From an uncultured delta proteobacterium (lineage in GTDB: Bacteria > Desulfobacterota > Binatia > DP-6): a stretch of DNA of 64,000 nucleotides. Made by a program: the position numbers and the translations under genes. The stretch spans positions 1,120,001 through 1,184,000 of the forward strand of contig CAWFFN010000009.1 in NCBI GenBank assembly GCA_963815115.1. Reading direction: 5' to 3'. Below are positions 15,488-49,343 of the stretch, one piece after another. The stretch's first letter is position 1, and each line of letters opens with the position of its first letter. The notes beneath the pieces are model-generated. The model was not told the DNA's origin. It was given only the letters and a program-made list of their open reading frames with translations, and ran no database searches.

Positions 15488-17546
15488 TTGAGTCTCGCTA
15501 TCGAAGTCAGGCGGCGCGCGGTTCGTGCGAAACAAAGGCAGCACGGCGGCCGGGAGAAGCTGTGCGAGGCCGGTGTCACGCGGCGGTCCTTTGTGGGTTG
15601 CTTGCGAAGTGCTCCTGGGCGGCTGCTCATTGCCCTGGGTTTCGTGGCGCTCCTTCCTTGGAACGGAGCTTCGACGCCTGGACAGATCGGCTACGTCGCG
15701 AACGGAGAGGGATCGATCTCGGTGTTCGATTCGGAGACAGACGAGGTGGTGAAGACGATCCCGATCCCGGTTGATGGCCCGTTCGCCAACCTATCGCTAC
15801 TGCTCTCGCCGCAGGACAGACGTTTGTTCGTGCTGGTCAAGGAGAGCAGCGCGCTGGAGGGTCGGCCAGGGAACGAACGGCGGTCCGTCTCTTTGATCGA
15901 CACGGCATCGCACCGCGTGATCGTCACGACAACCATAGGACCCGGAGGATCGCCTTTGGCGCTGGCGATCGGCGACCTCGAGGACCTTCACTTGAGTGGC
16001 GATGGTACGCGATTGTACGTAGCCATCCCAATCGCCTCGGGGCAGCCCGGAGGGCTTGAGGGTTTGTTGTTGGGTTTGGATCCGACTGACTTACACGTCT
16101 TGTCGTCGATCCCCGTCGCGTTTCCCGGCTTGGGTCCGGGTCTGCTCTTTCAGCCAACCTTGGCGGCAAATCGCGGGCGGCTCTACTCGGTGACTCCCGA
16201 GGGCAGTGTTGCGGTCGAGGATGCAGCCACGGGCGCCCTCGTGGCAGACATCCCCCTCCCTCCAGAGATCACCCAGCCGGTAGGAGCGCTCTCCGTGGAG
16301 GGTTTGGTACTCTCGCCTTCTCAGGCGCATCTCGCTGTCCGCGATGCCCTGGTGGATCTTGAAGCCAACCGCCTCATGGGGCGGGTCTCCGATGGTTCCC
16401 CGGATGAACCACTCCTGGCGCGTTTCTCGGCGGACAGCGCGACCTTCTTTTCACTGATAGGCGGGCTCTCGTTCCAAGGCTGCGGCCGTGGGGATGATCC
16501 GGTGGCTCTCACTCTTGCCGCGATCGATGTCGCGAGCTTCAAAGCTATCGCGCGAGTATCTCTCGGTGAGGCCCAGCCTGGTATCTCGGCCACATCGTCG
16601 CCGGTTGGTAGTCGCCTTGCAGTCGTGGTCAGGCGGTGCACGACGGCTCCGCAGGAATTGGTCGTCGTCGACGTGCCAGACCGAAGGGTGACGCGGCCCG
16701 TACGAGAGGCGACCGGCCCGACGGCCGACATATCCGAGATCGCACAGAGCCCGGACGGAAGCCGGATGGTCTTCGTCGAGACGTCGCCGGTGCTGCACCG
16801 TCGGAATGGAAAGGTCCAGCCAACATTGCAGTCCGATCTGCTGGACGTTGATGTGGAGCATGGCGTCCTGGACCGTAGCGTCGACCTCGGTGACTTCACG
16901 CCGTCGACGTTGGGCCAGGGCATGGGAGCGCGCCCTGGAGTCTTTACGAGTGATGGTCAAAAGCTCTATCTGATCGGCCAACGCGGCCTCTTGGGAGCGA
17001 CACAGGTCAAGAGCCTATCGTCGACTCGCGGCCTTGGCAGGGTCTCGGGCGGAGGCCTGAGGCCTCAGCAGATCCCTTCTCGGCGATCCGTGCACCAATG
17101 CGGAAGGATGCTTCTGTCGGACCGACACAGACTGCGACGACGGGAACCCGTGCACCGTCGATTCCTGCGAGGAGGAGCGCCGGTGCCTGAACGTGCCGAG
17201 CCCGTGCATCACTGGCATCGAATGCCTCGCAGGGAACGAGCGCGTCGTCTCCTGTCTCACTGCGGCCCAGCGGCGTCGTTCGGTTCGAGTGCAAGAGCGC
17301 CTGAGGGTAGCCGACGCGGCCGTTCACGGCGGCGATGGCGATCGTGCCCGAGGCATCCTCGCTGAAACGGAAGGCGAGGTGAAGCGGCTCCTGGCGATCG
17401 CGATAAAACGCACGAACGTCGATTCGGCGGTGAACCGGAACGAGCTCGAGTGCAATGTCATCCTCTTTCAGCGGCAGCTGCTCATTCTCCAGCGCCTGCG
17501 TAAGGTTAGGCAAAATCTCGCGGAGTGTCAGCAGTCCGGACCATGA
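15488..17546 (+). CDS. Secreted YVTN/YncE beta-propeller protein with C-terminal Cys-rich motif and helical tail (frameshifted ~17000-17080; start uncertain)
   Basis: YVANGEGSISVFD, VSLIDTASHRV, LSGDGTRLYVA, FTSDGQKLY; another frame gives CRTDTDCDDGNPCTVDSC and ends overlapping the next ATG. Confidence 0.65.
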
Positions 17547-18700
17547 GAGGAATAGCCGCCGGTGTCGCCGTCACGATGGCAATTACCATGGTGGTCGAGC
17601 GGGCGACCGCGGCATCCTTGGCGACGCAGCTCGATGATCTCCTGACGCATAAGGGATTCCAGCAGGTCGATACGATCGTCCCCACACTGGTCCGGACGGT
17701 GGCGCGAAGCGCCGACTTCCCGATCGCCGCGACCGGTCCGGACTTCGCCTACGAGTACCGTCCCGAAACTGGCACCTTCGAGCGAAGCGCGCGACCGTTC
17801 AACCCAGTCCTCATCGAGGTACCCCAGACCCTGGGTCTGCATGTTCTCCAGATTGGGATATCGATGCTGTGGAGCGGTTTCAATCGGCAGGACGGTGGAC
17901 TTCTCAGGAACACGAAAGCGGGGTTTACGTTCACCGGAACGACGCCGGAGAACGAAACCGTTCCCATTCCCGGCAACTTGACCTTCAACGACTTCCGTAT
18001 CGAGGATTTCGTTTTCTCCGGGGTCGTGACCTACGGGATCACCGAGCGATGGGACGTCGGGCTGGTCGTGCCGGCCGTGCTCACGACGTTGAAAGCGCAA
18101 GGTCGAAGCACGGTACGCATCGCTGGAGAGAACCTTCTGGTCACGCTCGACCGCTTCGATATCGACGATTCGAAGCTCGGGGTCGGAGATGTGCTTCTTC
18201 GAACGAAGTACGCGCTCGACCCGCTCTGGGGTATCACGTTCGCCCCCGTCTTCGTCTTGCGTCTTCCCACCGGGAATCCGAACAACTTCCAGGGTATCGG
18301 TGACACGACGCTCACGCCGGGGGTCGCGGCAATGCACTCCGGGGAGAGAGTGGGATTCTACGCGGACGCTGGATTCGAGTTCGATGCTGACGACCTCAGT
18401 CGAAGTGCGTTTCGATACGGCATGGCGCTGTCCGTTCGTATCCTCAAGTATGCGTCGATCATCGCCGAACTCACGGGTAAATCGACGGTGAGCGACGATA
18501 CATTCTCTGTTCGACTTGCAGGGACGTCCAGGGAGCTGCCAGCGAGTATACTAAGGAGCGACATCGTCAGCGGTGCCGTGAGCGTCAAGGCGCGGGTGCT
18601 ACCAGGCTGCGTGGCCTACGCGGGCGCGCTGTTCCCCCTCACGAAGGACGGCGTCACCACACCGGTGACCCCCTTGGCTGGTCTAGAGTTCCACTTCTAG
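17543..18700 (+). CDS. Outer-membrane beta-barrel ('transporter'/Phenol_MetA_deg-like), paralog 1
   Basis: Signal peptide; YEYRPETGTFERS, GVGDVLLRTKY, PTGNPNNFQGIGD; C-terminal GLEFHF. Confidence 0.75.
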   Translation: MRGIAAGVAVTMAITMVVERATAASLATQLDDLLTHKGFQQVDTIVPTLVRTVARSADFPIAATGPDFAYEYRPETGTFERSARPFNPVLIEVPQTLGLHVLQIGISMLWSGFNRQDGGLLRNTKAGFTFTGTTPENETVPIPGNLTFNDFRIEDFVFSGVVTYGITERWDVGLVVPAVLTTLKAQGRSTVRIAGENLLVTLDRFDIDDSKLGVGDVLLRTKYALDPLWGITFAPVFVLRLPTGNPNNFQGIGDTTLTPGVAAMHSGERVGFYADAGFEFDADDLSRSAFRYGMALSVRILKYASIIAELTGKSTVSDDTFSVRLAGTSRELPASILRSDIVSGAVSVKARVLPGCVAYAGALFPLTKDGVTTPVTPLAGLEFHF

Positions 18701-18722
18701 GTCCGTCGACCATTCACGCGCC

Positions 18723-20129
18723 ATGCTCTTCCACCGGGCGCCCTTCCTCTGGCTCCTCCTCGCCACCTTCGTCGGGTACTGGTGGCTGCTGCGCACCCAG
18801 CGGGCGCGCAACCTGCTCCTGCTGCTCGCCAGCGTCGTGTTCTACGCGAACTGGAATCCCTGGCTCGTGCCGCTGGTCGCGGGCACGGCGATCTTCGACT
18901 ACCGGATGGCCCTGGCCATCGAGGATGCGCGCGACGAGATCACCCGCCGGCGCCGCCTCGTCGCCGCGGTCGCCGTCCCGCTCGGCTTGCTCGCCTACTT
19001 CAAGTACACGAATTTTCTGATCGCCCAGGCGTGGCTGCCGTTGCGCATGCTCGGCCTGCAGGCGCCGCCGCCCGTGTTCGACATCGTGCTGCCGCTCGGC
19101 ATCTCGTTCTACACCTTCGAGACGATCGCCTACGTGGTCGACGTCTACCGGCGGCGGATTCCCGCGGAGCGCAATGCGGTCGACTACACGGTGTTCCTGC
19201 TCTTCTTCCCCCACCTGATCGCCGGGCCGATCGTGCGCGCGGATCAGTTCCTTCCCCAGGTGCGGCGGGCGCGGCGGCTCGACTGGGGCCGCGTCGAGCT
19301 CGGGGCACGGCTCTTCGTGTTCGGGATGCTCAAGAAGGCGGTGGTCGCCGATCAGCTGGCGGTGCTCGTCGATCCGGTCTTCGCGCATCCGGAGTCGTAT
19401 GCCACGAGCACGATCTGGACCGGCGTCGTGTGCTACGCCGTCCAGATCTACTGCGATTTCTCGGGCTACTCCGACATGGCGATCGGGGGCGCCCACATCC
19501 TCGGCATCAAGCTGCCCGTCAACTTCCGGATGCCGTACTTCGCGGCGAACCCGGCGGAGTTCTGGCGCCGCTGGCACATCACGCTGTCGACGTGGCTGCG
19601 CGACTACCTCTACATTCCGCTCGGCGGCAACCGTCACGGCACCGCGGCCACCCACCGCAACCTGCTCCTCACCATGCTGCTGGGCGGGCTGTGGCACGGA
19701 GCCGCGTGGACGTTCGTGATCTGGGGCGCCTATCACGGCGTCCTGCTGATCCTGCACCGCGCGATCCCGTGGCCCGCGTGGACGGGACGTGCGGCGCTGC
19801 GCCCCGCGCGGGTCGCGCTCATGTTCCTCCTCGTCTGCGTGGGATGGGTCTTCTTCCGCGCGGAGAGCCTCACGGGGGCGGGGACGATCCTCGGGCGCAT
19901 GGCGGTCCCGACGGCGGGGATCGAGCTCACGCCACAGGTCGCCGCCCTCGTGGTCGCGCTCCTCGGGATCGTCTTCGTGGCGCACCTGGTCGGCACGTTC
20001 GCCGACGTGCCGCGGCTCGTGCGCCTCCTGCCGGCGCCCGTGCTCGGGACGGCGCTCGCCGGCGGCTTCCTGCTCGCCCGGCTGCTGGCTCCCGACACGG
20101 GAGGCGCCTTCATCTACTTCCAGTTCTGA
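18723..20129 (+). CDS. MBOAT O-acyltransferase (AlgI/DltB-like)
   Basis: LPLGISFYTF, FPHLIAGPIVR, QIYCDFSGYSD, EFWRRWHITLS.WLRDYLYIPLGGNR, GLWHGA, FIYFQF. Confidence 0.95.
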   Translation: MLFHRAPFLWLLLATFVGYWWLLRTQRARNLLLLLASVVFYANWNPWLVPLVAGTAIFDYRMALAIEDARDEITRRRRLVAAVAVPLGLLAYFKYTNFLIAQAWLPLRMLGLQAPPPVFDIVLPLGISFYTFETIAYVVDVYRRRIPAERNAVDYTVFLLFFPHLIAGPIVRADQFLPQVRRARRLDWGRVELGARLFVFGMLKKAVVADQLAVLVDPVFAHPESYATSTIWTGVVCYAVQIYCDFSGYSDMAIGGAHILGIKLPVNFRMPYFAANPAEFWRRWHITLSTWLRDYLYIPLGGNRHGTAATHRNLLLTMLLGGLWHGAAWTFVIWGAYHGVLLILHRAIPWPAWTGRAALRPARVALMFLLVCVGWVFFRAESLTGAGTILGRMAVPTAGIELTPQVAALVVALLGIVFVAHLVGTFADVPRLVRLLPAPVLGTALAGGFLLARLLAPDTGGAFIYFQF

Positions 20130-20288
20130 GATGTTGCCGGGTGTTGGCCCTCGATCACGGCTCGCACGCAAAGGCGGCGCGACCGCGGCACGGAGACGGG
20201 GGTGAGCGACCGGGGGCGGAAGCGCTTGCATTCTCGTGCGGGTGAGTGTGTCTGACCCCGAGGGGAAACCCAGCGCGAGGAGAAGGCA

Positions 20289-21056
20289 GTGGGAGGCTCT
20301 TTCTTGAAGACCAAGGTGCCGTCCGCACCGGGTTTCATCCCGATCCGGAGCGGGCGCCTGCAGAGGAAGTGCGACTGCGGCCAGCATGGATGTGGCGCGG
20401 GCGCGAAGTTCGCGGCGTGCCAGGGAAGGCGCGCGGCGGAGGCCGCGCCCGCCCAGGCCATGGGCGCCCGCTTTGCTCACGACTTCAGCGGCGTCCGCGT
20501 CTACAGCGGTCAGAGCCCGTGCTCCCCCGACTGGTACGGCGACTCGAAGCCGGAGATGGACGAGACCACCGGGAAGGTAACGGGGAAGGTCAAGGTGACG
20601 TACAACGACGCCGCGATCAAGAGCCCCTGTGTCAAGGATTGCATCCAGAAACACGAAGCGGTGCACGTCAAACAGCTCACGCCGGTGGTGCAGGAGATCC
20701 ACAAGTGCGAGGTTGCGGCGAAGGGCGACCCCAAGAAGCAAGAGAAATGCGACCTTCTCTTCTTCGAGAAGATCACCAAGGCCCCCCTCAACGCGATGGA
20801 GTGCGAAGCGTATCAGGTCAGCAAGGCCTGCCTCGCCCGGAAGCTGGCGGACAAGACCTGCTCCAAGGAGCCCCACCGCAAGGCCGTCGAGCAGCACCTG
20901 AAGCAGGAGGAATGCGAGCTGGCCGATCGCAAGTGCAGCGGGTCGAGGTCCTCCAAGGCGAAGGCGGAGATATCCCCGGAACAGGAGACCATGCCTACCG
21001 CGCTGGCACAGCGCGAACAGGACTCCGAACCGGCCGACGCCGGCGAGCCCGCCTGA
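20289..21056 (+). CDS. Protein with degenerate DUF4157/eCIS-core-like N-terminus and Cys/Lys-rich C-terminal domain
   Basis: LQRKCDCG...MGARFAHDFSGVRV; later HEAVH and ECEAY. Confidence 0.6.
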   Translation: MGGSFLKTKVPSAPGFIPIRSGRLQRKCDCGQHGCGAGAKFAACQGRRAAEAAPAQAMGARFAHDFSGVRVYSGQSPCSPDWYGDSKPEMDETTGKVTGKVKVTYNDAAIKSPCVKDCIQKHEAVHVKQLTPVVQEIHKCEVAAKGDPKKQEKCDLLFFEKITKAPLNAMECEAYQVSKACLARKLADKTCSKEPHRKAVEQHLKQEECELADRKCSGSRSSKAKAEISPEQETMPTALAQREQDSEPADAGEPA

Positions 21057-21159
21057 CGGACGTGCCCCTGCCCTGGCCCCGCGGACCTGGCGTTTTTCTT
21101 TGACCGGCGGATCGCGGACGTGCTAGCGCCACACCGTTGCCGCCAGATCGGAGGGCCCG

Positions 21160-21948
21160 ATGCACGTCACCGTCCGCGTGGTCCTGGCGCTTCTTCCCCT
21201 CCTCGCCGGGGCGCAGACCGGTCTCGCCAAGTGCGACCCGACGACCGAACCCGACCGCGGCGACGTCGCCAGCGCACGAACCGCAGTCGCGACGGCGTGC
21301 GAGTGCGCCGGCGCCGTGTCTCACCGCGGCTACGTGACCTGCGCCGCCGAGGAGGCCAAGGCCGCGCTGGTGAACAAGGGCTGCGCCGGTGTCGTCAAGC
21401 GCTGCGCCTCCAGGTCGACGTGCGGCAAGCCCGGCTTCGTTGCGTGCTGCCGGACCCGTAGCTCGGGCAAGACCTCGTGTTCGCTGAAGCGGAGCGCGGC
21501 TCGCTGTGTCCCCCCGAAGGGAGGCGGCGCGTGCGCGTCATCGGTGCCGAGCTGCTGCGACGCGTGCGGCGCCGGCGGCTGCAACGCGACCACCACCACG
21601 ACCTCGTCGACCTCGACGACGAGCAACCCCGCTCCGCCCGCCTGCGGTCTCGACGCGGGTGGCACCTGCGGAGGCCTCTGCCCGTCGCTGACCGACGATT
21701 GCGTCCAGGATTCCGTCACGGGAGCGTGCGGCTGTGTCCCGGGGGCGTGCCGGGCGATCGGTGGCATCGGATCGTGTGGGGGGACCTGCCCGGCGCCGGC
21801 AATCTGTACCCTCTTTCCGGTTGCCGGGGGCTGCACGTGCATCATCCCCTGCGAGGGAAGTGGCGCTCCTCCCTGCTCCCCCCCGTGTTCGCCCGGTCAG
21901 GGATGTGTCTTCAACCCGTCCACGGCCGCGTGCGTCTGCGCTCCGTGA
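21160..21948 (+). CDS. Secreted Cys-rich protein with Thr-rich linker
   Basis: Signal peptide, CECAGAVSHRGYVTC..CASRSTCGKPG, TTTTTSSTSTT, CGGxCP repeats. Confidence 0.8.
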   Translation: MHVTVRVVLALLPLLAGAQTGLAKCDPTTEPDRGDVASARTAVATACECAGAVSHRGYVTCAAEEAKAALVNKGCAGVVKRCASRSTCGKPGFVACCRTRSSGKTSCSLKRSAARCVPPKGGGACASSVPSCCDACGAGGCNATTTTTSSTSTTSNPAPPACGLDAGGTCGGLCPSLTDDCVQDSVTGACGCVPGACRAIGGIGSCGGTCPAPAICTLFPVAGGCTCIIPCEGSGAPPCSPPCSPGQGCVFNPSTAACVCAP

Positions 21949-21970
21949 CGGCTCTGGCAGGAGCGACACG

Positions 21971-23101
21971 GTGCCACGTCCGCGTCCCGATCCGGCCCGC
22001 GCGCGCCGCGTGCTTGCCATGGCGGGCGTCGTCATCGTCACGGGACAGCTGGCGGCGGGACTGGCTCTCGACGCGGCCCCGCCGTCGGTTCGCTTCGCGG
22101 AGGGTGCCAGGGTGCTGGCGCGTGCGCGTGCGGTCGGCGACGCCCCGTATGTTCTCCTGCTCGGAAGCTCCCGGTTCTGGAAGATCGACCTCGACGACGC
22201 CAGGGCTGCCCTTCTCGAGACCGTAGGGACCGGAGCCCCCCGGGTCGTCCAGGGTGCCGTCCTGGGCGGCGACGCCGTCGTCGCCGACTACCTGCTCGAG
22301 CGAATCCTCGCCGAGGGAAGCCGCCCGGCGCTGATCGTGACCGAGATCAGCCCGGAGACCATCGGACACCCCTCGAACTGGATCGCCGGCGATGCCATCC
22401 GCTTCTTCACCTGGAGGGACGTCCTGGCGTGGGCACCGGAGATCGTCGCGCGCGGCAAGCCGGGAGAGGTGATGACCGCGCGCTTCGCGCCGATCGACGT
22501 GTACCGCCGCGAGCTGCTCACCTGGATCGTGGGCCGCCCGCCGCCGTATCTCTCGGTCGCATCACCCGGGATGGACGATGCCTCACCCCCGGACGAGCCC
22601 CGTCCGACGGATGGCCAGGTCGAGCCGGCGCCCGCCGTCCCGAACTCGACCGCACCGGACGGCGACCGCCGGCAGCCCAACGCGGCCACGCTGTCGGGGC
22701 TGCGCCAGACGCGTGGATGGCTGCGTCACTACCGGCTCGGCGGTGAGGCGCGGGCGCTGGAGCGCTTCCTGGCTCGCAGTCGGGCCGCGGGCATCCCCGT
22801 CGTGCTCGTGGGCGTGCCGGTGTCGAGCTGGGTGCGCGCGCTCTACACTCCCGAAGTCGAGCAGGTGTTTCGCGACTACATGGACCGCCTGAGCTCTGGC
22901 GGTGACACGGAGTTCGTCGACTGGCGGGCCCGCTTCGCGGATCGCTTCTTCGCCGATCACCACCACCTCAATGCCCGCGGCGGGAGCCTCTTCGCACGCA
23001 TGCTGGCCGGCGAGGTGCTGGCGCGGCACGTGCGGGAGATGACGGGGCGTGACCACCCCGACGCCGCGCCGACGCCGCGCGGGACCGCGTCGCCGGGCTG
23101 A
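21971..23101 (+). CDS. SGNH-like protein (DltD/AlgJ/DUF1574-type), probable MBOAT partner
   Basis: N-terminal TM, VLLLGSSRF, FADHHHLNARGG. Confidence 0.7.
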   Translation: MPRPRPDPARARRVLAMAGVVIVTGQLAAGLALDAAPPSVRFAEGARVLARARAVGDAPYVLLLGSSRFWKIDLDDARAALLETVGTGAPRVVQGAVLGGDAVVADYLLERILAEGSRPALIVTEISPETIGHPSNWIAGDAIRFFTWRDVLAWAPEIVARGKPGEVMTARFAPIDVYRRELLTWIVGRPPPYLSVASPGMDDASPPDEPRPTDGQVEPAPAVPNSTAPDGDRRQPNAATLSGLRQTRGWLRHYRLGGEARALERFLARSRAAGIPVVLVGVPVSSWVRALYTPEVEQVFRDYMDRLSSGGDTEFVDWRARFADRFFADHHHLNARGGSLFARMLAGEVLARHVREMTGRDHPDAAPTPRGTASPG

Positions 23102-23206: not shown

Positions 23207-25982
23207 CTATTTCGGTGACTTCCTGCGTGCTCTGGTGACTGCCGTCGGACACTGCTCGCGTCGCACGTTCCCGAAGTGGTCGGTCACTTCGACGCAGACG
23301 CCCACCTGGATATCCGGGTGGTTCTTCAGGTACCGCTTGCCATTCTGATTGGTACCGAGCTGAGCACGAACGTCGGCGTTGCGCTGGCCGACATCCGGAA
23401 GAACCTTGCCTTTGTCGAATCGCGCCTTTCCCGGCTTGGTTACCTGAGGCCCCGCGGCACACCCGGGTGTGCAGCCACCGACGTTGACCTGGCTTCCGAT
23501 GGCCTGGTTGCTGGTAGCCTGGCCGCCGGGAGCAAGATAGCCCACGGCTGAACACCTGGCCGGCTGATCACCAGTGGTGTTGTTGAGCATGCAGAGCACG
23601 TCGATCTTCCCCGCTCCGCCCACGACCTGTGCGTCGCCAAAGCACGCCTGGCATGCGCCGCTTACGCACTTCCCCTGAGGGGGATCGCAGCTCGCATCGA
23701 TGCAACCCGTGCCATCGTCCTCTGGGTGCCCCGTAGGGCAATTCGGGCTGAACCCGGTGCAGGCGCTTTCCTTCTGACACGATTGCGGCGTAGCACCGCA
23801 ACGAGTGCCCGGATCCACGTACTGATCCGCGGCACAGTCAGGACTCGCCCCGTCGCAATACTCGGCCTGGTCACATTCCCCGACCTGGGGTCGGCATACG
23901 AAGGTCGTCGGCTGGATCCTGGCTTTTGGACAGAGAGCGTCCTGGCCCGTGCACTGGGCTTGCTCCTCGCAGGCCCGCGGGGCCGGGCCACAGATCTCGG
24001 TGTTCGGCTTGAACCTGGGCGATGGGCATCCGTCGTGTGTCCCGTCGCAGTACTCGGGCACGTCACACACGCCGGCCGATGGGCGGCAAACGACACCCGC
24101 GAGCTTCGGCGTGGGAGTCGGGCACATCGGGCTCGAGCCGTTGCATACCGCGTCATTCGAACAGACGGCGCCGAACTGGCACACCGCCCCGCCCGCAACC
24201 AGCCGGCAATTTGCGTCGCAGCAAGAGCCGGACGCCCCATTGAGACCCGGACCGAGGTCGCATTGCTCTCCCCCCTGGATGATCTGGTCTCCGCAGACGG
24301 GGATCGTCGTGCTCGTCGTGGATGTGGCCGGGCCGGTGGTCGTCGTGGTCGTCGATTGGCGTGTCGTGGTCGTGCTACTGGACGTCGTTGTCGTGGTCGT
24401 GCTCGTCGACTGCGCTTTCGTCGTCGTGGTCGTGCTCGTGCTCGTCGTGGACGGGTGGGTCGTGACCGTCGTCGTGCTACTGGACGTCGTCGTCGTGGTC
24501 GAGGTGGTCGTGGTCGTGCCGATCGTCAGGGCCCCGGCCTTGCAAGCGCCGATGTCGGGAGCGCCGGCAACCGGACCGTTCGCCAGGGGCGAGGTTTGCA
24601 CGCATCCAAACGTCCCATCGTCGAGGCAGTGAAAGATGAGTATCCTCCACTTCACCAGCGTCGCTCGTACCCCACCAGTTGTGGGAAGCGACGACGGGGA
24701 CCGCTCCGGCGCCTTCGTTGTCCCGGAGGACAAATGGCCCTGCTTGCCCGCCGGGGCCCGTGTGGATGAGGTTGCTCTGCTGGATGTCGACGGCCGGGGC
24801 GTATGCGGCATCAACCAGCGTCCCGTCACTACTATCGTTGACGAGCGTCGACTGGCGGACCGTCGTGGTGCCAACGTAGTCCACATGGAGCGTAGGACCC
24901 TGGTTCGCGCTGACGCAGCTCCCACTGATTGAACTGCCGTATGTCTCGATACCCGCGCCGCCGTTCCCGGAGACCAGCAATCCGGTGAGCGTGGAGTTGC
25001 CGACGGAGACTCCGGCTCCCCCGTTGTCGGTGATCGTGCTTTGCTGCAGTGTCATATTTGCGCCACTGACTCCGACGCCGCCGTTTCCAGATATGGTGGC
25101 GTTCGAGATCAAGATAGGTGAAGAGCCACTGGGGGAAAGCCCGGTGCCGCCACCAGTGTTCCCCGTGATGTTGAGCTGCCCGAGAGTCGAACCGCCGTTG
25201 TTCGCCGTCACATACAAACCGCTGCCATTCAGTGCGTTGTTCGAGACGTCGAGTCCCGCGAGGTTCACGCGAGCGCTCGCGACATAGACGCCATAGGTAA
25301 GTGTGTTGTTCGAGACGTTGAGTCCCATGAGGTCCACGAGGCCGCCGTTGACGTAGATGCCATAGCTGCACGTGCTCGACATCACCGCGACGTTCTGCAT
25401 CCGAACGTTGCCGGTACCGGAACCGAAGTACACGGCGAAGGTTGGATTGCTCTTCTGCACCGTGACGTCTTTGAGGAATGGCGAGGAAGAGGCCGCGTCG
25501 ACGACGCCGCTCCCCCCCGTGTCCTTGGCGTACTCGATGACGCAGTACTCGAGGATCGCGCCGCCGCTGTAGGCGCTAGTCCCATCGAACGTGGCGTCCG
25601 GCGAGCTGTCCTCGAATCGAATGCCCAGCCAGTCGCCCGGAGCAGGGGTCGCGCTGTTCGAGGTGAAGCGGATTGGCGCATCGGCGGTGCCACGGGCGAC
25701 CAGGGTTCCGAACACGTCCAGGAGCTTGCTGCTCGCGAAACGCACCACGACGCCGGCCTCGATCGTCAGCGTCGGTGGAGGCTTTCCGGAGCAAAAGGTG
25801 GCGCCCCCGATGAACAGGCCGCTGGTCACCACGATCGGGCTGTCACCCTGATGCCAGGTCGTGTCGTCGCATATGGCACCACCGACGTTCAGCGCGACCG
25901 CTGCAACGGGACGCGAGAGGATCATGGCGACGACCAAGCAGCTCCAGATCCACCGAGCCGGCAAGGCCCCAGGAAATCTCAT
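23207..25982 (-). CDS. Large secreted protein: right-handed beta-helix, Thr-rich stalk, disintegrin-like Cys repeats (frameshift ~24640)
   Basis: LTIEAGVVVRF..GTADAPIRFTS..PGDWLGI, ISGNGG repeats, ASHNWWG; CGDQIIQGGEQCD..CCDANC, VCRPSAGVCDVPEYCDG. Confidence 0.8.
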
Positions 25983-26444
25983 CGCGAGGGGGGGTAACAC
26001 AGGAAGATGGGGCCTAGAAAGGGGATTTGCCCTTGACAGCCGTTGCGCTCCGGCAGGGGCGCAACGTATAAGGGAAGTGTGGAGGTCCCCGGGGCGTGGG
26101 GGAGCCGTGGTGCTGGCTGAAGGACAGCGGCTCGTCGCAGCCCGCCGATGTGGGGACGGGATCGTGATCGGGTGCCACGACTGCACGCCGGTGCCGGTGA
26201 GACGTTGCTGGAGAAGGTGCGCGGCTGCAAGGGTCTGCTCCGCCTGACGACGGGCTGCGCGCTCGCGCTCCGTCGCGGCGCCACGATCGCGAGGAGCGTC
26301 GCCGAGCTACGGAAGCCCTTGCGGAGCCTTGGAACGGCGTGGGAAGAGACGTGCGGTCCTCTCCAAGCACGATGTCGGCGAGTATTGCTCTGTGACCAGT
26401 CTCCGCGACGCGATCTACGCACATAGTTTCTTGGGGGGGTCGCG

Positions 26445-27926
26445 GTGAGCGACGTCTTCCTCAGCTACACGCGCGAGGATCTGACGCGGATCCAGCCGCT
26501 CATCGCGGCGCTGGGAGCCTCCGGGCTGACCGTGTGGTGGGATCGCACGATTCTCCCCGGGAAGCGGTTCGACGCGGTCATCGAAGAAGCCATCGACGGT
26601 GCTGCGTGCGTGATCGTGGTGTGGTCTCGACACTCGGTCGGTTCCGAGTGGGTCAAGCTCGAGGCTTCGGAAGGGATGCGACGCCGCGCGCTGGTTCCCG
26701 TCCTGGTGGACGACGTCGCGATCCCCTTCGAGTTCCGCCGTGTCCAGGCTGCCGACCTGATCCAATGGACCGGCGGCACCACCGAGCCCGAGTTCCGCAT
26801 GCTGCTCGACGCCGTCCGCGGCGTGTCGGCCTCGCACGCAGCCACGCGGGAAGGGCCACCGCCGGTGCCGTCCTGGACGCCGCCGCCCCCTCCTCCGCTG
26901 CCAGTTCACGTCACCAAGAAACGAGCACCGATCGCCGGGTGGCCCGTCGTGCTCGCGCTCGTCGTGGCTGTGGTGGCTACGGGCGTGCTCCTGCGCCTTC
27001 GCGAGACCGCGTCGCCGGTCGCACCCGGGCTCCGCGTGGTTGGCGTGATGGAGATCAAGTCGCAGGGCCACATCGAGCCCTGGATGTGCAACCTCACGCG
27101 CGACAAGCTCAACGCGACCCTCAGCAAATTCAGCAACCTGCAGGTCTACTCCCGCGAGAAGATCGACTTCCTCATGGAGAAGCGAGGCTTGAGCGAACTC
27201 GAGGCGGCGACGTCGCTCGGCATCCAGAAGATGGTCTCGGGCACCCTCTCCGGGATGGGGTCCCACCTCGCGCTCCAGGTGCACGTCGTGGACACGGGCA
27301 CCGGCGTCCTCGAGCAGGGGGGTGAAACGACGGGATCGGAGAACGAGCTCGAGGACATGCAGAACCGCGTTGCGCTCGAGGTCATCAAGGGACTTCACGT
27401 CGAGATTGCCGCCGGCGAACTGGAGCGCATCCTGGCGCTGCGCGGGAACGCCACCCCCCAGGACTACAAGCTTCTGGCCGACACGATGGGAGGGTTCGAC
27501 GGTGAAACCGCCGCACCTCCCAAGCCGTCGAAGGACTCGCCGCGTTCGGGTCTGTTCGACATTCACGTCAGCGAGGCATGGGCGGCCGGCGACGATCAGC
27601 AGGCCATTCGGGATGTCCTCGAGCGATATCGGCTCGCTGTCGAAGGCAGAAACCTGGAAACCCTTGCCTCCCTGCACGTCGCACTGACGGACCGCATGCG
27701 AGAGGCCCTCGTCCGCTACTTCGACAACGCCCAGGACATTCACGTCCGGTTCACGGGTATCGACGTCGTTGTCGAGCGAGACCAGGCACTCGCCACGTTC
27801 ACCCGGACCGACGAGTTCACGGACGCGCACACGGGGCGCCCTGTGCGCATGGAGCTCCGCGTGAGCAGCGTGATCGAACGGGTCGGCAACGAATGGAAGG
27901 TTCAAGGGCTCAAGTCGTCTGCTTGA
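26445..27926 (+). CDS. TIR domain, TM helix, TolB-N/CsgG-like domain, NTF2/SnoaL-like domain
   Basis: DVFLSY.RED, VWWD, VVWSRHSVGSEWVKLEA; hydrophobic helix; AIRDVLERYRLAVEGRN...NEWKV. Confidence 0.85.
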   Translation: MSDVFLSYTREDLTRIQPLIAALGASGLTVWWDRTILPGKRFDAVIEEAIDGAACVIVVWSRHSVGSEWVKLEASEGMRRRALVPVLVDDVAIPFEFRRVQAADLIQWTGGTTEPEFRMLLDAVRGVSASHAATREGPPPVPSWTPPPPPPLPVHVTKKRAPIAGWPVVLALVVAVVATGVLLRLRETASPVAPGLRVVGVMEIKSQGHIEPWMCNLTRDKLNATLSKFSNLQVYSREKIDFLMEKRGLSELEAATSLGIQKMVSGTLSGMGSHLALQVHVVDTGTGVLEQGGETTGSENELEDMQNRVALEVIKGLHVEIAAGELERILALRGNATPQDYKLLADTMGGFDGETAAPPKPSKDSPRSGLFDIHVSEAWAAGDDQQAIRDVLERYRLAVEGRNLETLASLHVALTDRMREALVRYFDNAQDIHVRFTGIDVVVERDQALATFTRTDEFTDAHTGRPVRMELRVSSVIERVGNEWKVQGLKSSA

Positions 27927-28035
27927 CGGGGCGGGTCTTCCCGCAGCAACCGAGAGCACCCGGCCTGGCCTTCATGGCCACCATTGCCAAGATGCCGAGG
28001 GAACGAGTACCGCTGGGTACCGCAGAAGAGCTAGC

Positions 28036-44028: not shown

Positions 44029-45501
44029 CTACCGCCGCGGCGCCGGCGTCGTCTCCGCCTCGAGCGCCACGATGCGCGGCTCGCCGTCGCGCCGGGCGAT
44101 CTGCCACGTCGCCACGCCCTGACGCCGCACCGGCCGCCCGCGCTGGTCGTGGGTGTTCAGCTGGAAGGACACCCGCACCGTCACCCGGTCACCGGCCGGC
44201 TTGGCCTCGACCTCGGGAGCCGGGGTGACCAGCGCGCCGCCGCCCAGCGGATCGACGTTCAGGACATCACCGGTCGGCACCGCCTCGGGCGCGAACAGCG
44301 CTCGGACCCCGTCGCGATCGCGCGCCTCGTAGGCGCGCCAGAAGCGGTCGACGAGCGCGAGCGCCTCGCTCGCCGAGGGCGGGGCCTCCACGGACTTGGC
44401 GCTCAGGGGCGCGGCCTCGGGCCCGGGGATGGCCGGCGGAGGTGACGCGACGGGAGGCGGCGGGGGCACGGTGGGTGCCGTCGTCGGTGGCGCCGGGGGC
44501 ACGGGTGCGGGCGGCGGCGGCGAGCGCCAGGGGCGGATCGCCAGGAGCGCCAGCGCGCTCGCCGCCGCGACGCCGGCCGCGGCGAACGCGATCCGGCGCC
44601 GGCCGGCCGCGACCTGCGGCGCGGCTTCGCCGGCCGGCTCGATCTCGATCGGCTCCGCCGGGGGCCGGGGCATCGGCGTCCCCTCCGGGCGATGGAGCGG
44701 GGCGTAGTCGGCCCACACGGTGTCGATCGTCGACCGGCCGATGGGGCGCTGTCCGTCCGCGAAGGCCGCCACCAGCGCGGCCTCGCAGAGGACGTTGATG
44801 ATCCGCGGGATGCCGCCGCTGAGCGCGGCCACGCGGGCCAGCGCCTCGGGGGTGAACAGGTCCAGGTCCTGCGCCTGTGCGTGCGCCAGCCGCGCGCGCA
44901 CGTAGGACGCGACCTCGTCTGGCGGCAGGGGTCCCAGCCGGGCCGTGACCGCGACCCGGGCGCGGAGCGTCGCGTGCGCGCGGGATGCGAGCCGGGCCTC
45001 CAGCTCGGGCTGACCGGCGAGGACGACCTGCAACGCCGGGCGCCCTTCGGGCCCGGCGAGGTCGAGGAGCGCGGGCACGGCATCGAGGGTCTCGTCCTTC
45101 AGAGCCTGCGCCTCGTCGAAGAAGACGACCGAGTTGCCGCCGGCGTACGTGTGCTCGCGCAGGAACTCCGACAGCCGCTCCAGCAGGGCGTCGCGCCCCC
45201 CGCCCTGGACGGGCACCCCGAACTCGAGGAGCAGGTGGTCCAAGATCTCCTCGAAGCCGACCGTCGGGTGCATGACGAGCACGGAGTGCACCTCGGCGGG
45301 CAGCGAATCGAGGAGCTGGCGGACCAGCGTCGTCTTGCCGGTACCCACCTCGCCGACCAGCACGAGCAGGCCCGCGCGCTCGAGGATGCCGGTGGTGAGC
45401 GCCTGCAGCGCCGCCTCCACCGAGGTGCCGTGGTGGAGGAAGCGCGGATCGGGCGTGATGCGGAAGGGCGCCTCGCCCAGGCCGAAGAACGCCCGGTACA
45501 T
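44029..45501 (-). CDS. ExeA/GspA-type AAA ATPase, TM, Pro-rich linker, NTF2-like domain
   Basis: MY..FFGL...PF.ITPDP, GEVGTGKTT, FDEAQ, LAGQPEL, GIPRIINVLC; C-terminal LVDRFWRAYEARD. Confidence 0.88.
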   Translation of the reverse strand: MYRAFFGLGEAPFRITPDPRFLHHGTSVEAALQALTTGILERAGLLVLVGEVGTGKTTLVRQLLDSLPAEVHSVLVMHPTVGFEEILDHLLLEFGVPVQGGGRDALLERLSEFLREHTYAGGNSVVFFDEAQALKDETLDAVPALLDLAGPEGRPALQVVLAGQPELEARLASRAHATLRARVAVTARLGPLPPDEVASYVRARLAHAQAQDLDLFTPEALARVAALSGGIPRIINVLCEAALVAAFADGQRPIGRSTIDTVWADYAPLHRPEGTPMPRPPAEPIEIEPAGEAAPQVAAGRRRIAFAAAGVAAASALALLAIRPWRSPPPPAPVPPAPPTTAPTVPPPPPVASPPPAIPGPEAAPLSAKSVEAPPSASEALALVDRFWRAYEARDRDGVRALFAPEAVPTGDVLNVDPLGGGALVTPAPEVEAKPAGDRVTVRVSFQLNTHDQRGRPVRRQGVATWQIARRDGEPRIVALEAETTPAPRR

Positions 45502-45511
45502 CCTCGCGCTG

Positions 45512-46758: not shown

Positions 46759-47865
46759 CTACCGCTGGAAGACCGAGAAGGTCCTCTGCAGGTTTTTCAC
46801 GTCGCGTTTAAGCGCTTTCGTGCCCGTGAGCAAGATGCGTCCGTTGCGCCGCAGCTCGCGGGCCGCGTCCGGCGTCAGGTCGCCGTGCCGGCGCCCGGCC
46901 GAGAGGCGGCCCAGGAAGTCCAGCACGTGCGCGGGCGCCGCCCGCACGTAGAGGAGCGCGACCCGGCCGCGCTGCTGTGCAATTGTGTCCACCGCGAGCC
47001 GGACGCCGCGGACCGGCCGCACCAGGCCCTGCGGCTGTCCGGCGTCCGGCGTGCGACCGGCCAGGACGCTGGCCGCGCCGTCGAGATCGGCGGCCACCGC
47101 GCCGAGGTCGTCGTCGAGACGGCTGCCGGTATCGCCGCCCACCTGCGCCTCGTCGGCCATGTAGGCGAGAAGGCGATCGACGCCGGCGCGCAGGTCGATC
47201 GCGTGCCGGTACGACGGGACGAGCGGGCTGCAGCCGCTCGGGTCGTCCACGGCGTCATGGGCGCAGGCGCCCGCGCGGCACCGGTCGACGGTGCACGGGT
47301 TCTGATCCTCGCTGCAGGCGGTCAGCTCGAAGGAGGCGGAGTCGCTGACGCAACCCTGTGCATCGGCACCGCGACCCGGCAGGCATTGCGTCTGCACGCA
47401 CTCGTTCGCGGTGGCACAGCGGTCGTCGACCGGGTCGTGGACGCAGGTGCCGCCGTCGCAGAAGTCGTCGGTGCAGGCGGCGCCGTCGTTGCAGTCGAGC
47501 GGGACCCCGGCGCACGTCCCGTCGCTGCAGCGATCGCCGATCGTGCAGGGGTCGTCATCGTCGCACGACTCGCCGCCTTCGTGCTCGCAGACGCCCAGGT
47601 CGCAGGTGTCGTTCGTGCAGGCGTCACCGTCGTCGCACTGGTCATTGTCCTCACAGGGGACGCAGCCGTCGAGTGCCACGTTCGTGCAGAGGCTGGTGCC
47701 CGGGTCACACGCGTCGTCAGTGCACTCGTTGCCGTCATCGCACACGACGAAGGATTCGGGCGAACCGGGCGTGCAGGTTTCCTGTGCCCGTGCCTGCCGG
47801 CCGAGGACGACTGCCGAGATCAGTGCCAAGATCAGCACGGGGAGGACCGTGCACCGCCGGATCAC
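46759..47865 (-). CDS. Secreted Cys-rich repeat protein (CDDGNxCTxDxC) with helical C-terminal domain
   Basis: Signal ARA-QE; CDDGNECTDDAC, CDDGDACTNDTC, CDDDDPCTIGDRC, CNDGAACTDDFC. Confidence 0.8.
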   Translation of the reverse strand: MIRRCTVLPVLILALISAVVLGRQARAQETCTPGSPESFVVCDDGNECTDDACDPGTSLCTNVALDGCVPCEDNDQCDDGDACTNDTCDLGVCEHEGGESCDDDDPCTIGDRCSDGTCAGVPLDCNDGAACTDDFCDGGTCVHDPVDDRCATANECVQTQCLPGRGADAQGCVSDSASFELTACSEDQNPCTVDRCRAGACAHDAVDDPSGCSPLVPSYRHAIDLRAGVDRLLAYMADEAQVGGDTGSRLDDDLGAVAADLDGAASVLAGRTPDAGQPQGLVRPVRGVRLAVDTIAQQRGRVALLYVRAAPAHVLDFLGRLSAGRRHGDLTPDAARELRRNGRILLTGTKALKRDVKNLQRTFSVFQR

Positions 47866-47996
47866 GCGCGAGACTATACCCAGGCCCGGTCGGGAGGACC
47901 ACGGCTTCCCCGAACCGCGTGGCCTTGGCAGGTGCGCGGGCCGCCGGCGGGGTCGCCGTTGCGGTGCGTGACGGCTTGGGGGAAGCTCGTCGAGGG

Positions 47997-49343
47997 ATGC
48001 CCCCGCTCCGGGCTGTCGCTGCATGCGCCGCGCTCCTCGCGGCGGGAGGGGCGTCGGCGATCGCCGTGCCCGTGCGACTCGCGCAGGTCGCGCCGTCGGA
48101 GGGCCGCGGCGACTCCGGGCTCCGGGCGACGCCCGAGGCGCCGAAGCTGAAGCTTCGGGTCGGCGAGACCCAGACGTTCGCGGTCGGGAGTCCCGCCGCG
48201 GACGCCCGGGTCCGCTGGACGCTCGACGGCCGGACCGCGGCGACCGGCGCCCAGTGGACCTGGGTTCCGGCGGCCCCCGACGTCGGCTCGCACGTCGTGT
48301 CGCTCGACGTCGGAGGCGACTCCGGCGGCGCGACCCGTCGCTGGCTCGTGCGCGTCATCCCTCCGCACCTGCCGCGCGTGGCCGCCGCCATTCCGGCGGC
48401 GGACAGCGTGTCGGTGAGCGTCGACCAGCCGGTGTCGCTGCGCTTCGACGTGCGTCCGAGCGCTCCGGGAGAGACGGTCACCGTCGCGTGGACCGTCGAC
48501 GGCGCGCCGGCGGGGGAGGGTGACACGCTACGCCGGAGCTGGAGCGAGCCGGTGAACGCCCGGGCCCGGGCCATCGCGACGAGCAGCCTCGGCACGGCCG
48601 TGGGGCGCGAGTGGCGCATCATGGTGCGGGCGGTGGTGACGACGACCACCACGACCAGCACCTCGACGTTGCCGGTCGCGCAGACGGCGAAGAACGCGCG
48701 AGAGACGGCGGCCGCGAACACGGAGCCGTCCGGGCGGGCGGGGCGCGAGACGGCCCCGGAGGAGACGGAGCTCGGCGAGTTCGCCCCGCCACCGCGCGCC
48801 GAGACCCCACATCCCGAGGAGGCTCCGTCGCGGCCGCCGCCCACCCTGGAAGCCGCGGCGGCGCCGCCGTCGACGGCCGCACCCCCGCCTCCTCCTCCGC
48901 CGCCACCTCCGCCACCGCCCCCGCCACCTCCGCCACCGACGTTCCCGCCTTCGACGGCGCCTCCGCCACCGCCACCCCCTCCCGCAGCGGCCCCCCGAAC
49001 CCCCGCAGCGCCGGCGTCCGGGGCGGAGGACGAGGTGCGCCGCCTGCTCGATCGCTATGCCGCGGCCTGGCACAACCACGACGTCGGCGAGCTGCGTCGG
49101 ATCGGGCAGGTGACGACCGACGGCCAGGCCGCCGACCTCGAGCGCTACTTCGCCAAGGTGGAGGAGCTCGACGTGGAGGTCCACGTGGTCGACATCCGTC
49201 CCGAAGGCGACGGGGCGACCGTTCGATTCACGCGGCGCGACCGCTTTCGCGATCCGTCGGGGCGCCTCGTGACGCAGGAGTCGCCGACCATAGAGAAGCG
49301 CCTGGTGCGCGGTCCCGACGGGCTCCGGTTCTCGGGGCGCTGA
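47997..49343 (+). CDS. Secreted protein: two Ig/PKD-like domains, Thr/Pro stalk, NTF2/SnoaL-like domain
   Basis: VRWTLDG and VAWTVDG; poly-Pro; VRRLLDRYAAAW...ATVRFTRRDRFRD. Confidence 0.75.
   Translation: MPPLRAVAACAALLAAGGASAIAVPVRLAQVAPSEGRGDSGLRATPEAPKLKLRVGETQTFAVGSPAADARVRWTLDGRTAATGAQWTWVPAAPDVGSHVVSLDVGGDSGGATRRWLVRVIPPHLPRVAAAIPAADSVSVSVDQPVSLRFDVRPSAPGETVTVAWTVDGAPAGEGDTLRRSWSEPVNARARAIATSSLGTAVGREWRIMVRAVVTTTTTTSTSTLPVAQTAKNARETAAANTEPSGRAGRETAPEETELGEFAPPPRAETPHPEEAPSRPPPTLEAAAAPPSTAAPPPPPPPPPPPPPPPPPPPTFPPSTAPPPPPPPPAAAPRTPAAPASGAEDEVRRLLDRYAAAWHNHDVGELRRIGQVTTDGQAADLERYFAKVEELDVEVHVVDIRPEGDGATVRFTRRDRFRDPSGRLVTQESPTIEKRLVRGPDGLRFSGR

Follow-up and report, generated by a model that had tools for sequence, protein, structure and literature searches.

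Why should one bacterial genome carry, within a single short stretch of DNA, three divergent copies of a gene for the same kind of outer-membrane (OM) beta-barrel, set among genes for secreted and signalling proteins? The stretch in question, hereafter the window, comprises 64,000 nucleotides of a contig from an uncultured delta proteobacterium of the Binatia (CAWFFN010000009.1, positions 1,120,001 to 1,184,000). A first-pass annotation, made from the letters alone, had noticed three barrel loci, each with a cysteine-rich (Cys-rich) secreted neighbour and some with proteins ending in a similar NTF2/SnoaL-like domain, and had proposed either a translocon or anchor for the Cys-rich cargo or a receptor relaying through the NTF2 domain to TIR and AAA outputs. 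The computational analysis reported here finds that the recurrent unit is the barrel together with the NTF2-tipped protein, that the two are associated beyond chance co-location, and that there is about an even chance that the pair constitutes a trans-envelope signalling device. The Cys-rich gene recurs as a third member only in the window's own genome and its nearest relatives, and fades outside that lineage.

Three Divergent Members of One Barrel Family

The three barrels (P0001, P0002 and P0003, at loci 1, 2 and 3; Table 1) are paralogs, as had been proposed: pairwise BLASTP alignments are nearly full length, with identities of 30, 28, and 29% and E-values of 9e-52, 1e-24, and 1e-30, respectively. 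All five motifs listed in the annotation are invariant in a three-way alignment, namely Y78-x-P80-x6-R87-S88, E98-x3-T102-x-G104, G219-x-G221-D222-x-L224-x-R226-x-K228-Y229, P248-x-G250-x4-F255-Q256-G257-x-G259-D260 and G386-x-E388-x2-F391. At the G+C content of the window (~70%) raw lists of open reading frames (ORFs) are crowded, and the three barrel ORFs are distinct by their codon-position G+C. The family profile finds nine barrel copies and one fragment in the window's own 6.9-Mb genome (G000, of which C5, C7, and C12 are contigs), and a profile of the three barrels matches 2406 representative proteins at E ≤ 1e-3, 525 of them at E ≤ 1e-30, among 1.84 billion.

None of the three proteins matches any model of Pfam (E ≤ 10), PF13557 included, or of NCBIfam. 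Among 81 aligned homologs, PF13557 (Phenol_MetA_deg) is matched by 49 (best 1.6e-13) and DUF3187 by 15, and one yields a marginal Autotransporter match (0.031). When the family profile is compared with the sequences of the Protein Data Bank (PDB), FapF chains are the sole match (1.6e-4). The AlphaFold2 (AF2) model of barrel 3 (pLDDT 94.7, pTM 0.88) is likewise closest in Foldseek to FapF (5o65, 5o67, and 5o68; E 3.3e-14 to 1e-11, TM(target) 0.63-0.68) and to the COG4313 channel Pput2725 (4rl8_C; E 4.1e-10, TM(target) 0.68), with FadL, OmpG, and omptins far weaker. Its DSSP string contains about 12-14 long strands, and its N-terminus after the signal peptide forms two short helices (residues 26-35 and 43-58). 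Because 49 of the 81 homologs match PF13557 and the model matches both FapF and 4rl8, sequence and predicted structure place the three barrels in the COG4313/Phenol_MetA_deg-FapF group of plugged 12-stranded OM barrels; since the window copies themselves do not match PF13557, they are evidently divergent relatives that lie outside that model.

A Constant Periplasmic Module With Variable Heads

The partner of these barrels is most readily described from P0007, the TIR protein encoded ahead of barrel 2. Its head scores well above the TIR_2 cutoff (1.1e-21, 78 bits against 28), is matched over residues 3-80 by the TIR models of PADLOC, and contains a Glu within a W-V-K-L-E context that may be the TIR catalytic residue. 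Its C-terminus exceeds the cutoff of SnoaL_3 (8.6e-6, 26.5 bits against 22). The similarity that the annotation had seen between this C-terminus and those of two proteins at locus 3 is real, as an NTF2 profile (built from four NTF2-like C-termini) matches the Ig-like protein at 2.4e-41 and the ExeA-like ATPase P0008 at 5.1e-33. Otherwise, P0008 matches AAA_22 (2.6e-23) with sub-threshold Pfam matches of NTF2 type, and the Ig-like protein matches BiPBP_C (2.2e-5) with sub-threshold matches to DUF4440 and SnoaL_2. A Pro-rich spacer of tens of residues lies ahead of the NTF2 domain in both. Orthologs of the Ig-like protein, and of the P0008 arrangement, occur in two fetched loci, L029 and L030 (L-numbers denote loci fetched by profile), the second of which has the same four-gene layout as locus 3.

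Among proteins with TIR, CHAT, kinase, and cyclase heads, the ~300 residues that follow the transmembrane (TM) segment are 30-40% identical. The model of this region in P0007 (residues 184-493; pLDDT 86.8) consists of two domains with a disordered linker between them. For the first, a lead came from the ESM Atlas, where the periplasmic module gave low scores only (0.80), toward TolB_N, FlgO, and LpoB; this was later backed by Foldseek, which matched the domain to the C-terminal domain of LpoB (4q6l; 7.4e-7) and also to the TolB N-terminal domain and PelC. The second domain is NTF2-like (3cnx at 1.3e-6, 4gb5, 3soy, and CaMKII hubs); its nearest structures include the putative dehydratase 3cnx, LinA, and ketosteroid-isomerase-like proteins, and many of its homologs match SnoaL_3, DUF4440, or CaMKII_AD. 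Positively charged residues precede the single hydrophobic segment, which points to cytoplasmic heads and a periplasmic NTF2 tip, a predicted topology that was read from the sequences by eye, the TM segment of P0007 included, and not computed. As judged from sequences and models, then, the conserved partner is a single-pass inner-membrane protein with a periplasmic LpoB/TolB-N-like plus NTF2-like module and a variable cytoplasmic head, and in some partners a long Pro-rich spacer replaces the LpoB/TolB-N-like domain. The heads are TIR and ExeA-like AAA in the window, CHAT elsewhere in the genome, and Ser/Thr kinase or class III cyclase in other bacteria.

Barrel and NTF2 Genes Are Linked in Both Directions

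The association of the two genes is apparent in the window's own genome. A six-frame search of its 6.9 Mb with the NTF2 profile placed the six best matches (E 4e-49 to 2e-19) no farther than 3.1 kb from one or another of the nine barrels; matches away from barrels were weaker, at 1.6e-9 and poorer, and one was split between two frames. The six comprise the three window proteins and three others, at the C5, C7, and C12 loci (Table 1).

In the forward direction we took 48 barrel loci of other genomes, drawn from Binatia, metagenome-assembled genomes (MAGs) labelled "Deltaproteobacteria," gammaproteobacterial MAGs, Methylomirabilota, Vicinamibacterales, Nitrospirota, and others. Neighbouring genes in fetched loci were called by a simple heuristic based on G+C at the third codon position (GC3), and many of the contigs are short. 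An NTF2-profile match was present in 14 of the 48, almost always in the gene abutting the barrel. The 15 proteins concerned carry Guanylate_cyc (3), Pkinase (3), AAA_22 (2), or DUF2255 (1) heads, Ig/PKD domains only (3), or nothing recognised (3); further flanking genes encode TIR_2 (two Vicinamibacterales loci), AAA_22, and Pkinase proteins. In the reverse direction, 60 metagenome loci (L059-L118) were retrieved with the NTF2 domain alone, most of them on contigs of 1-5 kb, and the barrel profile matched 22. The rate was 5/8 where at least 1.5 kb of flank was available on both sides, 11/30 with such a flank on one side, and 6/20 with neither; the NTF2 domain itself was not re-detected in two of the 60 loci. 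In the usual layout the NTF2 gene lies directly upstream and abuts the barrel, or is divergent from it, and 31 such proteins have cyclase (13), kinase plus cyclase (4), kinase (4), CHAT (4), or no recognised (6) heads. Being selected through the NTF2 domain, these loci are unusable for estimating what share of barrels has a partner. In a FastTree phylogeny of 65 barrels the NTF2-linked copies are spread over several clades, with the proviso that loci numbered L059 and above are NTF2-selected and hence not independent. A sample of 121 genomes of the window's phylum, of which seven carry the NTF2 module (G000 included), was uninformative for linkage.

Because the enrichment is strong in this genome and is seen again in the 48 forward loci and in the 60 reverse loci, the barrel/NTF2 module goes beyond chance co-location, and the neighbourhood check suggested in the annotation comes out in favour of the NTF2 partner. 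The pair, moreover, recurs without any Cys-rich gene. At locus 1 the profile finds no NTF2 gene; the intact paralogous locus on C7 has one.

A Putative Trans-Envelope Signalling Pair

If the genes belong together, do their products touch? One complex was predicted, between barrel 2 (residues 42-434, 81-row alignment) and the NTF2 domain of P0007 (17-row alignment). Its interface score (ipSAE) was 0.60, 0.37, and 0.43 in three runs, with a median of 0.43 against 0.00 for the best of three controls; contact agreement was at least 71% and partner pLDDT at least 82. In calibration, 116 of 157 solved complexes cleared the mark, as did two of 215 mismatched pairs, and scores at or below 0.60 came from only 18 of the 157 solved complexes and from both passing mismatches, counts that are only a rough guide here because custom alignments were used. 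Such a pass helps only where the prior is good; as the genomic prior is good, we treat the score as a modest increment, which lends weak support to docking of the P0007 tip on barrel 2, the one pair for which the modelling check was made.

The reading that we give about an even chance, a trans-envelope signalling device, starts from the partner's architecture: interchangeable enzyme heads on a constant extracytoplasmic module argue for a sensor, and tight linkage to one barrel family, reproducible in both directions, points to a role for the barrel in the sensing itself. The NTF2 tip, carried on an LpoB-like stalk or a Pro-rich tether, would contact the periplasmic face or the plug of the barrel and report its state, whether passage or occupancy of a ligand, displacement of the plug, or a surface partner that is pulled on or disturbed. 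Such a change would then alter the clustering of NTF2 tips and thereby the activity of the heads, probably through their oligomeric state; TIR, CHAT, kinase, and cyclase heads are all known to need oligomerisation. In this lineage, a secreted propeller or beta-helix protein that ends in a Cys-rich region (disintegrin, Dicty_CTDC, or DUF4215) and a helical tail would join the pair, and may be a ligand-binding partner held or sensed by the barrel. Of the two mechanisms offered in the annotation, relay through NTF2 domains to TIR and AAA outputs fits the better, given swappable heads of TIR, CHAT, Pkinase, Guanylate_cyc, and AAA_22 types. What the analysis establishes is the paralogy, the fold, the linkage of the genes in both directions, and the domain make-up; docking, the direction and nature of the signal, and the part played by the Cys-rich protein are inferences.

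Several observations weigh against this reading. The ExeA-like head is known from secretin assembly, not from signalling. The pairing is not obligate, as four of the nine barrels in this genome, window barrel 1 included, have no NTF2 neighbour. Likewise, 34 of the 48 forward loci have no NTF2 match, and some of these lie beside metabolic genes (RPE65, hydrolases), as would be expected of a simple uptake channel. Even where the contig is long, an NTF2 receptor can lack a barrel and adjoin Metallophos, GAF, or PD40 genes. The complex score falls in a range where, unless the prior is strong, wrong calls outnumber right ones, and it gives no interface. Finally, in the excerpted texts of the papers on them, the closest solved relatives are a polypeptide exporter, FapF (PMC5557850), and a putative channel for hydrophobic molecules, COG4313 (PMC4493636), neither of them a signal transducer.

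The second of these relatives bears on the most durable alternative, which we consider unlikely while taking it seriously: an uptake channel of COG4313 type and a periplasmic NTF2 sensor may simply share a hydrophobic ligand, with no contact between the proteins. Uptake of hydrophobic molecules is what the excerpted text implicates COG4313 channels in (PMC4493636), some barrels of the family adjoin genes for RPE65 carotenoid-oxygenase-like proteins and hydrolases, and the structures nearest to the NTF2 domain, named above, are small-molecule enzymes and binders. A hydrophobic pocket is, moreover, typical of the NTF2-like fold. The complex score, weak yet clean against its controls, leans instead toward contact; the NTF2 domain resembles the CaMKII hub, an oligomerisation domain, as well; TIR and CHAT would be unusual outputs for nutrient sensing; and the Pfam scan of window proteins shows no catabolic genes for a common substrate beside the pair.

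The Cysteine-Rich Third Gene

The annotation gave every barrel a Cys-rich secreted neighbour. Domain matches support this at each locus, but two of the three genes are split between frames. At locus 1, what had been read as a single gene (15488-17546) is not one open frame, the propeller (TIGR02276 match) lying in one frame and the Cys-rich knot with its tail (Dicty_CTDC match) in another. The last ~95 codons of the propeller ORF are out of frame past a shift at 17071-17076, a break covered by no short-read contig, and the second ORF, which overlaps the start of barrel 1, has no start codon of its own before 17193. An intact 669-aa paralog (G000:C7:1121818-1123827) precedes another barrel and overlaps its start in the same manner; the tails of the two are related (phmmer 1.1e-8). 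At locus 2, the beta-helix part (24477-26186, minus strand; Beta_helix 4.1e-16) and the disintegrin part (23210-24640, minus strand; PF00200 in three stretches, 1.4e-17) are joined only across a one-base frame change at ~24641. A contig of short-read run X1 (depth 3.5) has exactly one letter fewer at 24641, where the frames must join, and the break is therefore probably an assembly indel. That single-base difference suggests that assembly indels, more than pseudogenes, account for the frame splits, of which further examples are an NTF2 copy on C5 (G000:C5:1376415-1376742, in two frames) and a CHAT-NTF2 gene (L043:7478-9887). At locus 3 the Cys-rich gene is whole: the ORF is open to 48024, with a signal peptide starting at the GTG at 47865, the Dicty_CTDC match is 1.9e-7 (46759-48024), and its ortholog in L029 is 51% identical, tail included, in the same position.

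The two tails that the annotation had likened to each other do not hold up as similar. We looked for homology of the helical tails across three sets (locus 1 and its C7 paralog; locus 3 with L029 and L030; C5 with L043) and rejected it, the best BLASTP E-value being 0.13 and hhalign probabilities 0.03-1.2%; a MAFFT alignment reveals just a loose shared pattern.

Further Cys-rich proteins accompany the barrels of this lineage. At the CHAT locus on C5, an ECF (extracytoplasmic function)-sigma-like gene, a 299-aa gene, the CHAT-NTF2 gene, and the barrel form what looks like an operon, with a divergently oriented gene for a 1341-aa protein that has PPC, an FG-GAP propeller, a DUF4215 Cys-rich region, and a helical tail. 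The genes and their order are unchanged in L043, whose large protein is 51% identical. The first two genes lie at G000:C5:650837-652397 (L125:837-2397) and at L043:5720-7457; the 207-aa ECF-sigma-like product matches Sigma70_r2/r4_2 below threshold (E 1e-4), and the ~299-aa product has no Pfam match. Their order is reminiscent of a sigma/anti-sigma pair; no ECF-sigma-like gene is present at the three window loci. On C12 a barrel is followed by a protein with trypsin, PPC, and Cys-rich regions, and L031 encodes a protein with an NHL propeller, Disintegrin, and Dicty_CTDC. Of some 285 Cys-rich ORFs in the genome, four lie within 50 bp of a barrel. Outside the lineage the signal is weak: the 48 forward loci contain 15 non-haem Cys-rich ORFs at 5 kb or less from the barrel (374 kb of sequence) and five farther away (258 kb), a ~2-fold difference in which several of the inner ORFs are probably off-frame artefacts of lower-G+C genomes. 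The raw count is contaminated in addition by haem-binding proteins, the "Cys-rich" neighbours in L019, L021, and L041 being FHA proteins with multihaem cytochromes. Cys-rich neighbours thus recur in this lineage, and their enrichment elsewhere is weak.

These genes bear on a conveying or anchoring role, with the barrel as a FapF-like conduit or an autotransporter-like anchor for the Cys-rich protein, whose tail would engage the pore, and with the NTF2 proteins as accessories that would open or power it from the inner-membrane side, a part for which the ExeA-like ATPase and its Pro-rich, TonB-like spacer are the clearest candidate. The best structural match, FapF, exports unfolded polypeptides under the control of a periplasmic domain, according to the excerpted text (PMC5557850). 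At locus 3 the Cys-rich gene, the barrel, and the ExeA-like ATPase follow one another closely (gaps of 29 and 10 bp), an order kept in L029 and L030; the overlap with the barrel start at locus 1 and C7, the four Cys-rich ORFs close to barrels, and the propeller/Cys-rich/tail proteins beside the CHAT loci here and in L043, together with that of L031, point the same way. Nevertheless, we hold this role to be improbable. The pair is widespread without a Cys-rich gene, whose density is raised only ~2-fold near barrels in the 48 loci; no homology is detectable among the three tail types; kinase, cyclase, TIR, and CHAT domains are signalling or effector enzymes and not secretion motors; and no fap-like gene turned up when Pfam was run on 24 window proteins near the barrels (13-35.6 and 43.3-51.1 kb). 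By analogy with autotransporters, disulfide-rich folds and ~1000-aa propellers would be poor substrates for a 12-stranded pore. The annotation's translocon or anchor accordingly retains the polypeptide-exporting fold in its favour and loses generality, its cargo being lineage-limited and its tails without detectable homology.

A bolder form of the signalling reading makes the pair a device of envelope surveillance or immunity, in which a large, integrin- or disintegrin-like Cys-rich protein sits at or through the barrel as a bait turned outward, the NTF2 tip senses when a phage, predator, bacteriocin, or ligand disturbs this bait or the barrel plug, and clustering of the kind seen in CaMKII hubs fires a TIR NADase or a CHAT protease to kill or arrest the cell, with kinase or cyclase signalling in other lineages. 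We think this quite doubtful; if true, it would amount to a bacterial pattern-recognition receptor that spans both membranes and is assembled from parts not linked before. That there is no system at all, only three copies of an expanded barrel family among the secreted and signalling genes of a large soil-bacterium genome, would suit the nine barrels, the hundreds of Cys-rich ORFs, and a locus 1 that has a broken neighbour and lacks an NTF2 gene, but it is very improbable when the six best NTF2 matches of the genome all lie beside barrels and the linkage is reproduced in both directions in unrelated assemblies.

Table 1. Barrel genes, NTF2-tipped proteins, and Cys-rich neighbours (positions are those of the window; C5, C7, and C12 are other contigs of the same genome).
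Feature	Position	Strand	Remarks
Barrel 1 (P0001), 391 aa	17525/17543..18700	+	FapF/COG4313-like OM barrel; 603 bits to family profile
Barrel 2 (P0002), 434 aa	28036..29340	+	682 bits to family profile
Barrel 3 (P0003), 405 aa	45512..46729	-	Barrel modelled by AF2
P0007, 493 aa: TIR, TM, LpoB/TolB-N-like, linker, NTF2-like	26445..27926	+	110-113 bp upstream of barrel 2, same strand; assigned by Pfam, model, and Foldseek
P0008, 490 aa: ExeA/GspA-like AAA ATPase, TM, Pro-rich linker, NTF2-like	44029..45501	-	Downstream of barrel 3, starting 10 bp past its stop; assigned by Pfam and NTF2 profile
Ig-NTF2 protein: signal peptide, two Ig-like, long Pro-rich linker, NTF2-like	47997..49343	+	1.3 kb from barrel 3; Cys-rich gene oriented divergently
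CHAT-NTF2 protein			117 bp upstream of C5 barrel
NTF2 protein, 261 aa			C7 locus
NTF2 protein, 503 aa			C12 locus
Gene upstream of barrel 1, first part: secreted beta-propeller of YVTN type	15488..17365	+	TIGR02276 beta_rpt_yvtn 4.4e-7
Gene upstream of barrel 1, second part, in another frame: Cys-rich knot (CDDGNPCT) with helical tail	17061..17546	+	Dicty_CTDC 7.8e-6
Divergently encoded secreted protein of locus 2: right-handed beta-helix, Thr-rich linker, three disintegrin-like Cys-rich repeats	23207..26186	-	Assigned by Pfam
Locus 3 secreted Cys-rich protein: Dicty_CTDC-like repeats plus C-terminal helical tail	46759..47865	-	29 bp upstream of barrel 3

Comparison With Known Systems

To our knowledge, few designs have been described for OM signalling in Gram-negative bacteria, examples being TonB-dependent transducers with FecR-type partners and the lipoprotein sensors of Rcs and Cpx. 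In cell-surface signalling, the TonB-dependent transducer FecA acts through FecR on FecI, and we regard this as the functionally nearest known design, analogous and not homologous. The analogy would lie in the route from an OM barrel to the periplasmic domain of a single-pass inner-membrane protein and on to a cytoplasmic output; an ECF-sigma-like gene, at sub-threshold scores, also precedes the CHAT locus in two genomes. In contrast, no component is homologous: the barrels have a predicted ~12 strands and not 22, with neither a TonB box nor a signalling domain, LpoB-like and NTF2-like domains stand in place of FecR, and the enzyme outputs are fused to the transducer. Window proteins have no Pfam match to TonB_dep_Rec, Plug, STN, or FecR.

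The structural relatives differ chiefly in context. FapF, whose barrel is called autotransporter-like, lets unfolded amyloid subunits out by way of a 12-stranded pore whose plug is controlled by a periplasmic region, in the excerpted account of it (PMC5557850). The window barrels share with FapF (5o65) a predicted barrel fold of ~12 strands, probably plugged, helical N-terminal periplasmic elements, and a conserved motif of P-T-G type, PTG motifs being noted for FapF in the same excerpts (PMC5557850). Their sequence identity to FapF, however, is only 10-12%, the long N-terminal coiled coil is absent from the monomeric P0003 model, which has the two short helices only, and the partner is a predicted inner-membrane NTF2-tipped protein and not an amyloid subunit. 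No fap operon (FapA-E, with the C39 peptidase FapD) surrounds the three loci, as judged by Pfam over the 24 window proteins. The COG4313/PF13557 channels, among them Pput2725 (4rl8) and SphA, are thought to admit hydrophobic molecules, as far as the excerpted text goes (PMC4493636). Here the likeness resides in the PF13557 matches of the homologs and the fold match to 4rl8 already given; the window barrels differ in being ~100 residues longer, with a ~80-residue N-terminal region that carries Y-x-P-x6-R-S, and in lying among signalling proteins and not genes of aromatic or lipid catabolism.

Two secretion systems invite comparison as well. P0008 resembles ExeA/GspA (of the ExeA/GspA-ExeB pair) and the XrtA/PEP-CTERM-associated ATPase TIGR03015 in its AAA_22 head, its single pass, and a periplasmic C-terminus directed toward an OM channel. 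Its residues 1-265 align with TIGR03015 at 8.7e-58, but the score of 195.9 bits is below the cutoff of 324.5, and its C-terminus is a Pro-rich spacer with an NTF2 domain. The periplasmic domain of ExeA, by comparison, binds peptidoglycan, and ExeA/GspA-ExeB, an inner-membrane ATPase, helps to assemble the type II secretin; no secretin gene is present at the three loci or in their immediate flanks (13-35.6 and 43.3-51.1 kb). With type V secretion the window shares a cargo gene directly upstream of a barrel gene, as in two-partner systems. The cargo candidates here are disulfide-rich, which sets them apart, and window proteins have no Pfam match to POTRA, Omp85, the TPS domain, or Autotransporter.

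PADLOC returned matches at the level of the TIR domain only and no known defence system. Our literature search, which extended to neither supplements nor subscription journals, found no paper that links this barrel family with NTF2-tipped receptors. The excerpted main texts of two papers on TIR, caspase, and STAND conflict systems (PMC7159879, PMC8195603) contain neither "outer membrane" nor a beta-barrel, and that of a third (PMC10907252) has "outer membrane" once, on lipoproteins, and "barrel" never. What appears to be undescribed is thus the combination, the barrel fold and the domains being already known; the earlier remark that no named system has this layout applies to the layout and not to the barrel, which belongs to the COG4313/Phenol_MetA_deg-FapF group. 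If the signalling reading is correct, the pair adds a design, that of a small FapF/COG4313-type barrel with a portable LpoB-like/NTF2 module on at least five kinds of head, the death-associated TIR and CHAT included. The barrel family is large (2406 representative clusters) and frequent in soil metagenomes, and no Pfam model catches members of the window type. The pairing would offer a testable function for two large sets of "hypothetical" proteins, and it suggests how receptor kinases, cyclases, and TIR and CHAT proteins with extracytoplasmic tips might get information from beyond the OM.

Other Neighbourhoods and Minor Observations

Members of the barrel family have other companions too. In the Nitrospirota loci L045-L057, which form a divergent barrel clade, the barrel is flanked by a ~357-aa protein with an FGE-sulfatase domain and by ~1200-aa proteins that combine caspase (Peptidase_C14) and FGE-sulfatase domains, one flank instead having nSTAND1, DUF4062, and FGE-sulfatase; a different sensor of extracytoplasmic type, with death-type heads, therefore adjoins the same barrel family. 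The FHA proteins of L019, L021, and L041, one or two genes from the barrel, are fused to multihaem cytochrome c (nine CxxCH in L019 and L021) and may be another type of single-pass signalling partner. In a sub-clade represented by L024 and L032, a gene for an RPE65 carotenoid-oxygenase-like protein comes before the barrel and one for a secreted collagen-triple-helix protein after it; a collagen-like gene also accompanies the G000 barrel at C5:1291652 (C5:1290712-1292821, L122). At G000:C12:111552-119995 (L123), a 1962-aa DUF11-repeat protein with a Cys-rich C-terminus is followed by a tandem of two barrels that are more divergent.

Within the window, the interval between loci 1 and 2 (18723-23101) encodes an MBOAT acyltransferase (7e-30) and a second protein that matches DUF1574 below threshold, a pair that to us recalls polysaccharide O-acylation genes. 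Just upstream of locus 1, a 209-aa ORF (14835-15464) has weak beta/gamma-crystallin and Inhibitor_I36 matches (E 3e-3, below cutoffs). The G+C content falls to 62-67% at 14001-18000 and 24001-30000, as compared with ~70% in the rest of the window and in the genome contigs, and the GC3 of locus 1 and 2 genes is 0.66-0.84 as compared with ~0.9; the lower G+C of these two loci may reflect more recent acquisition.

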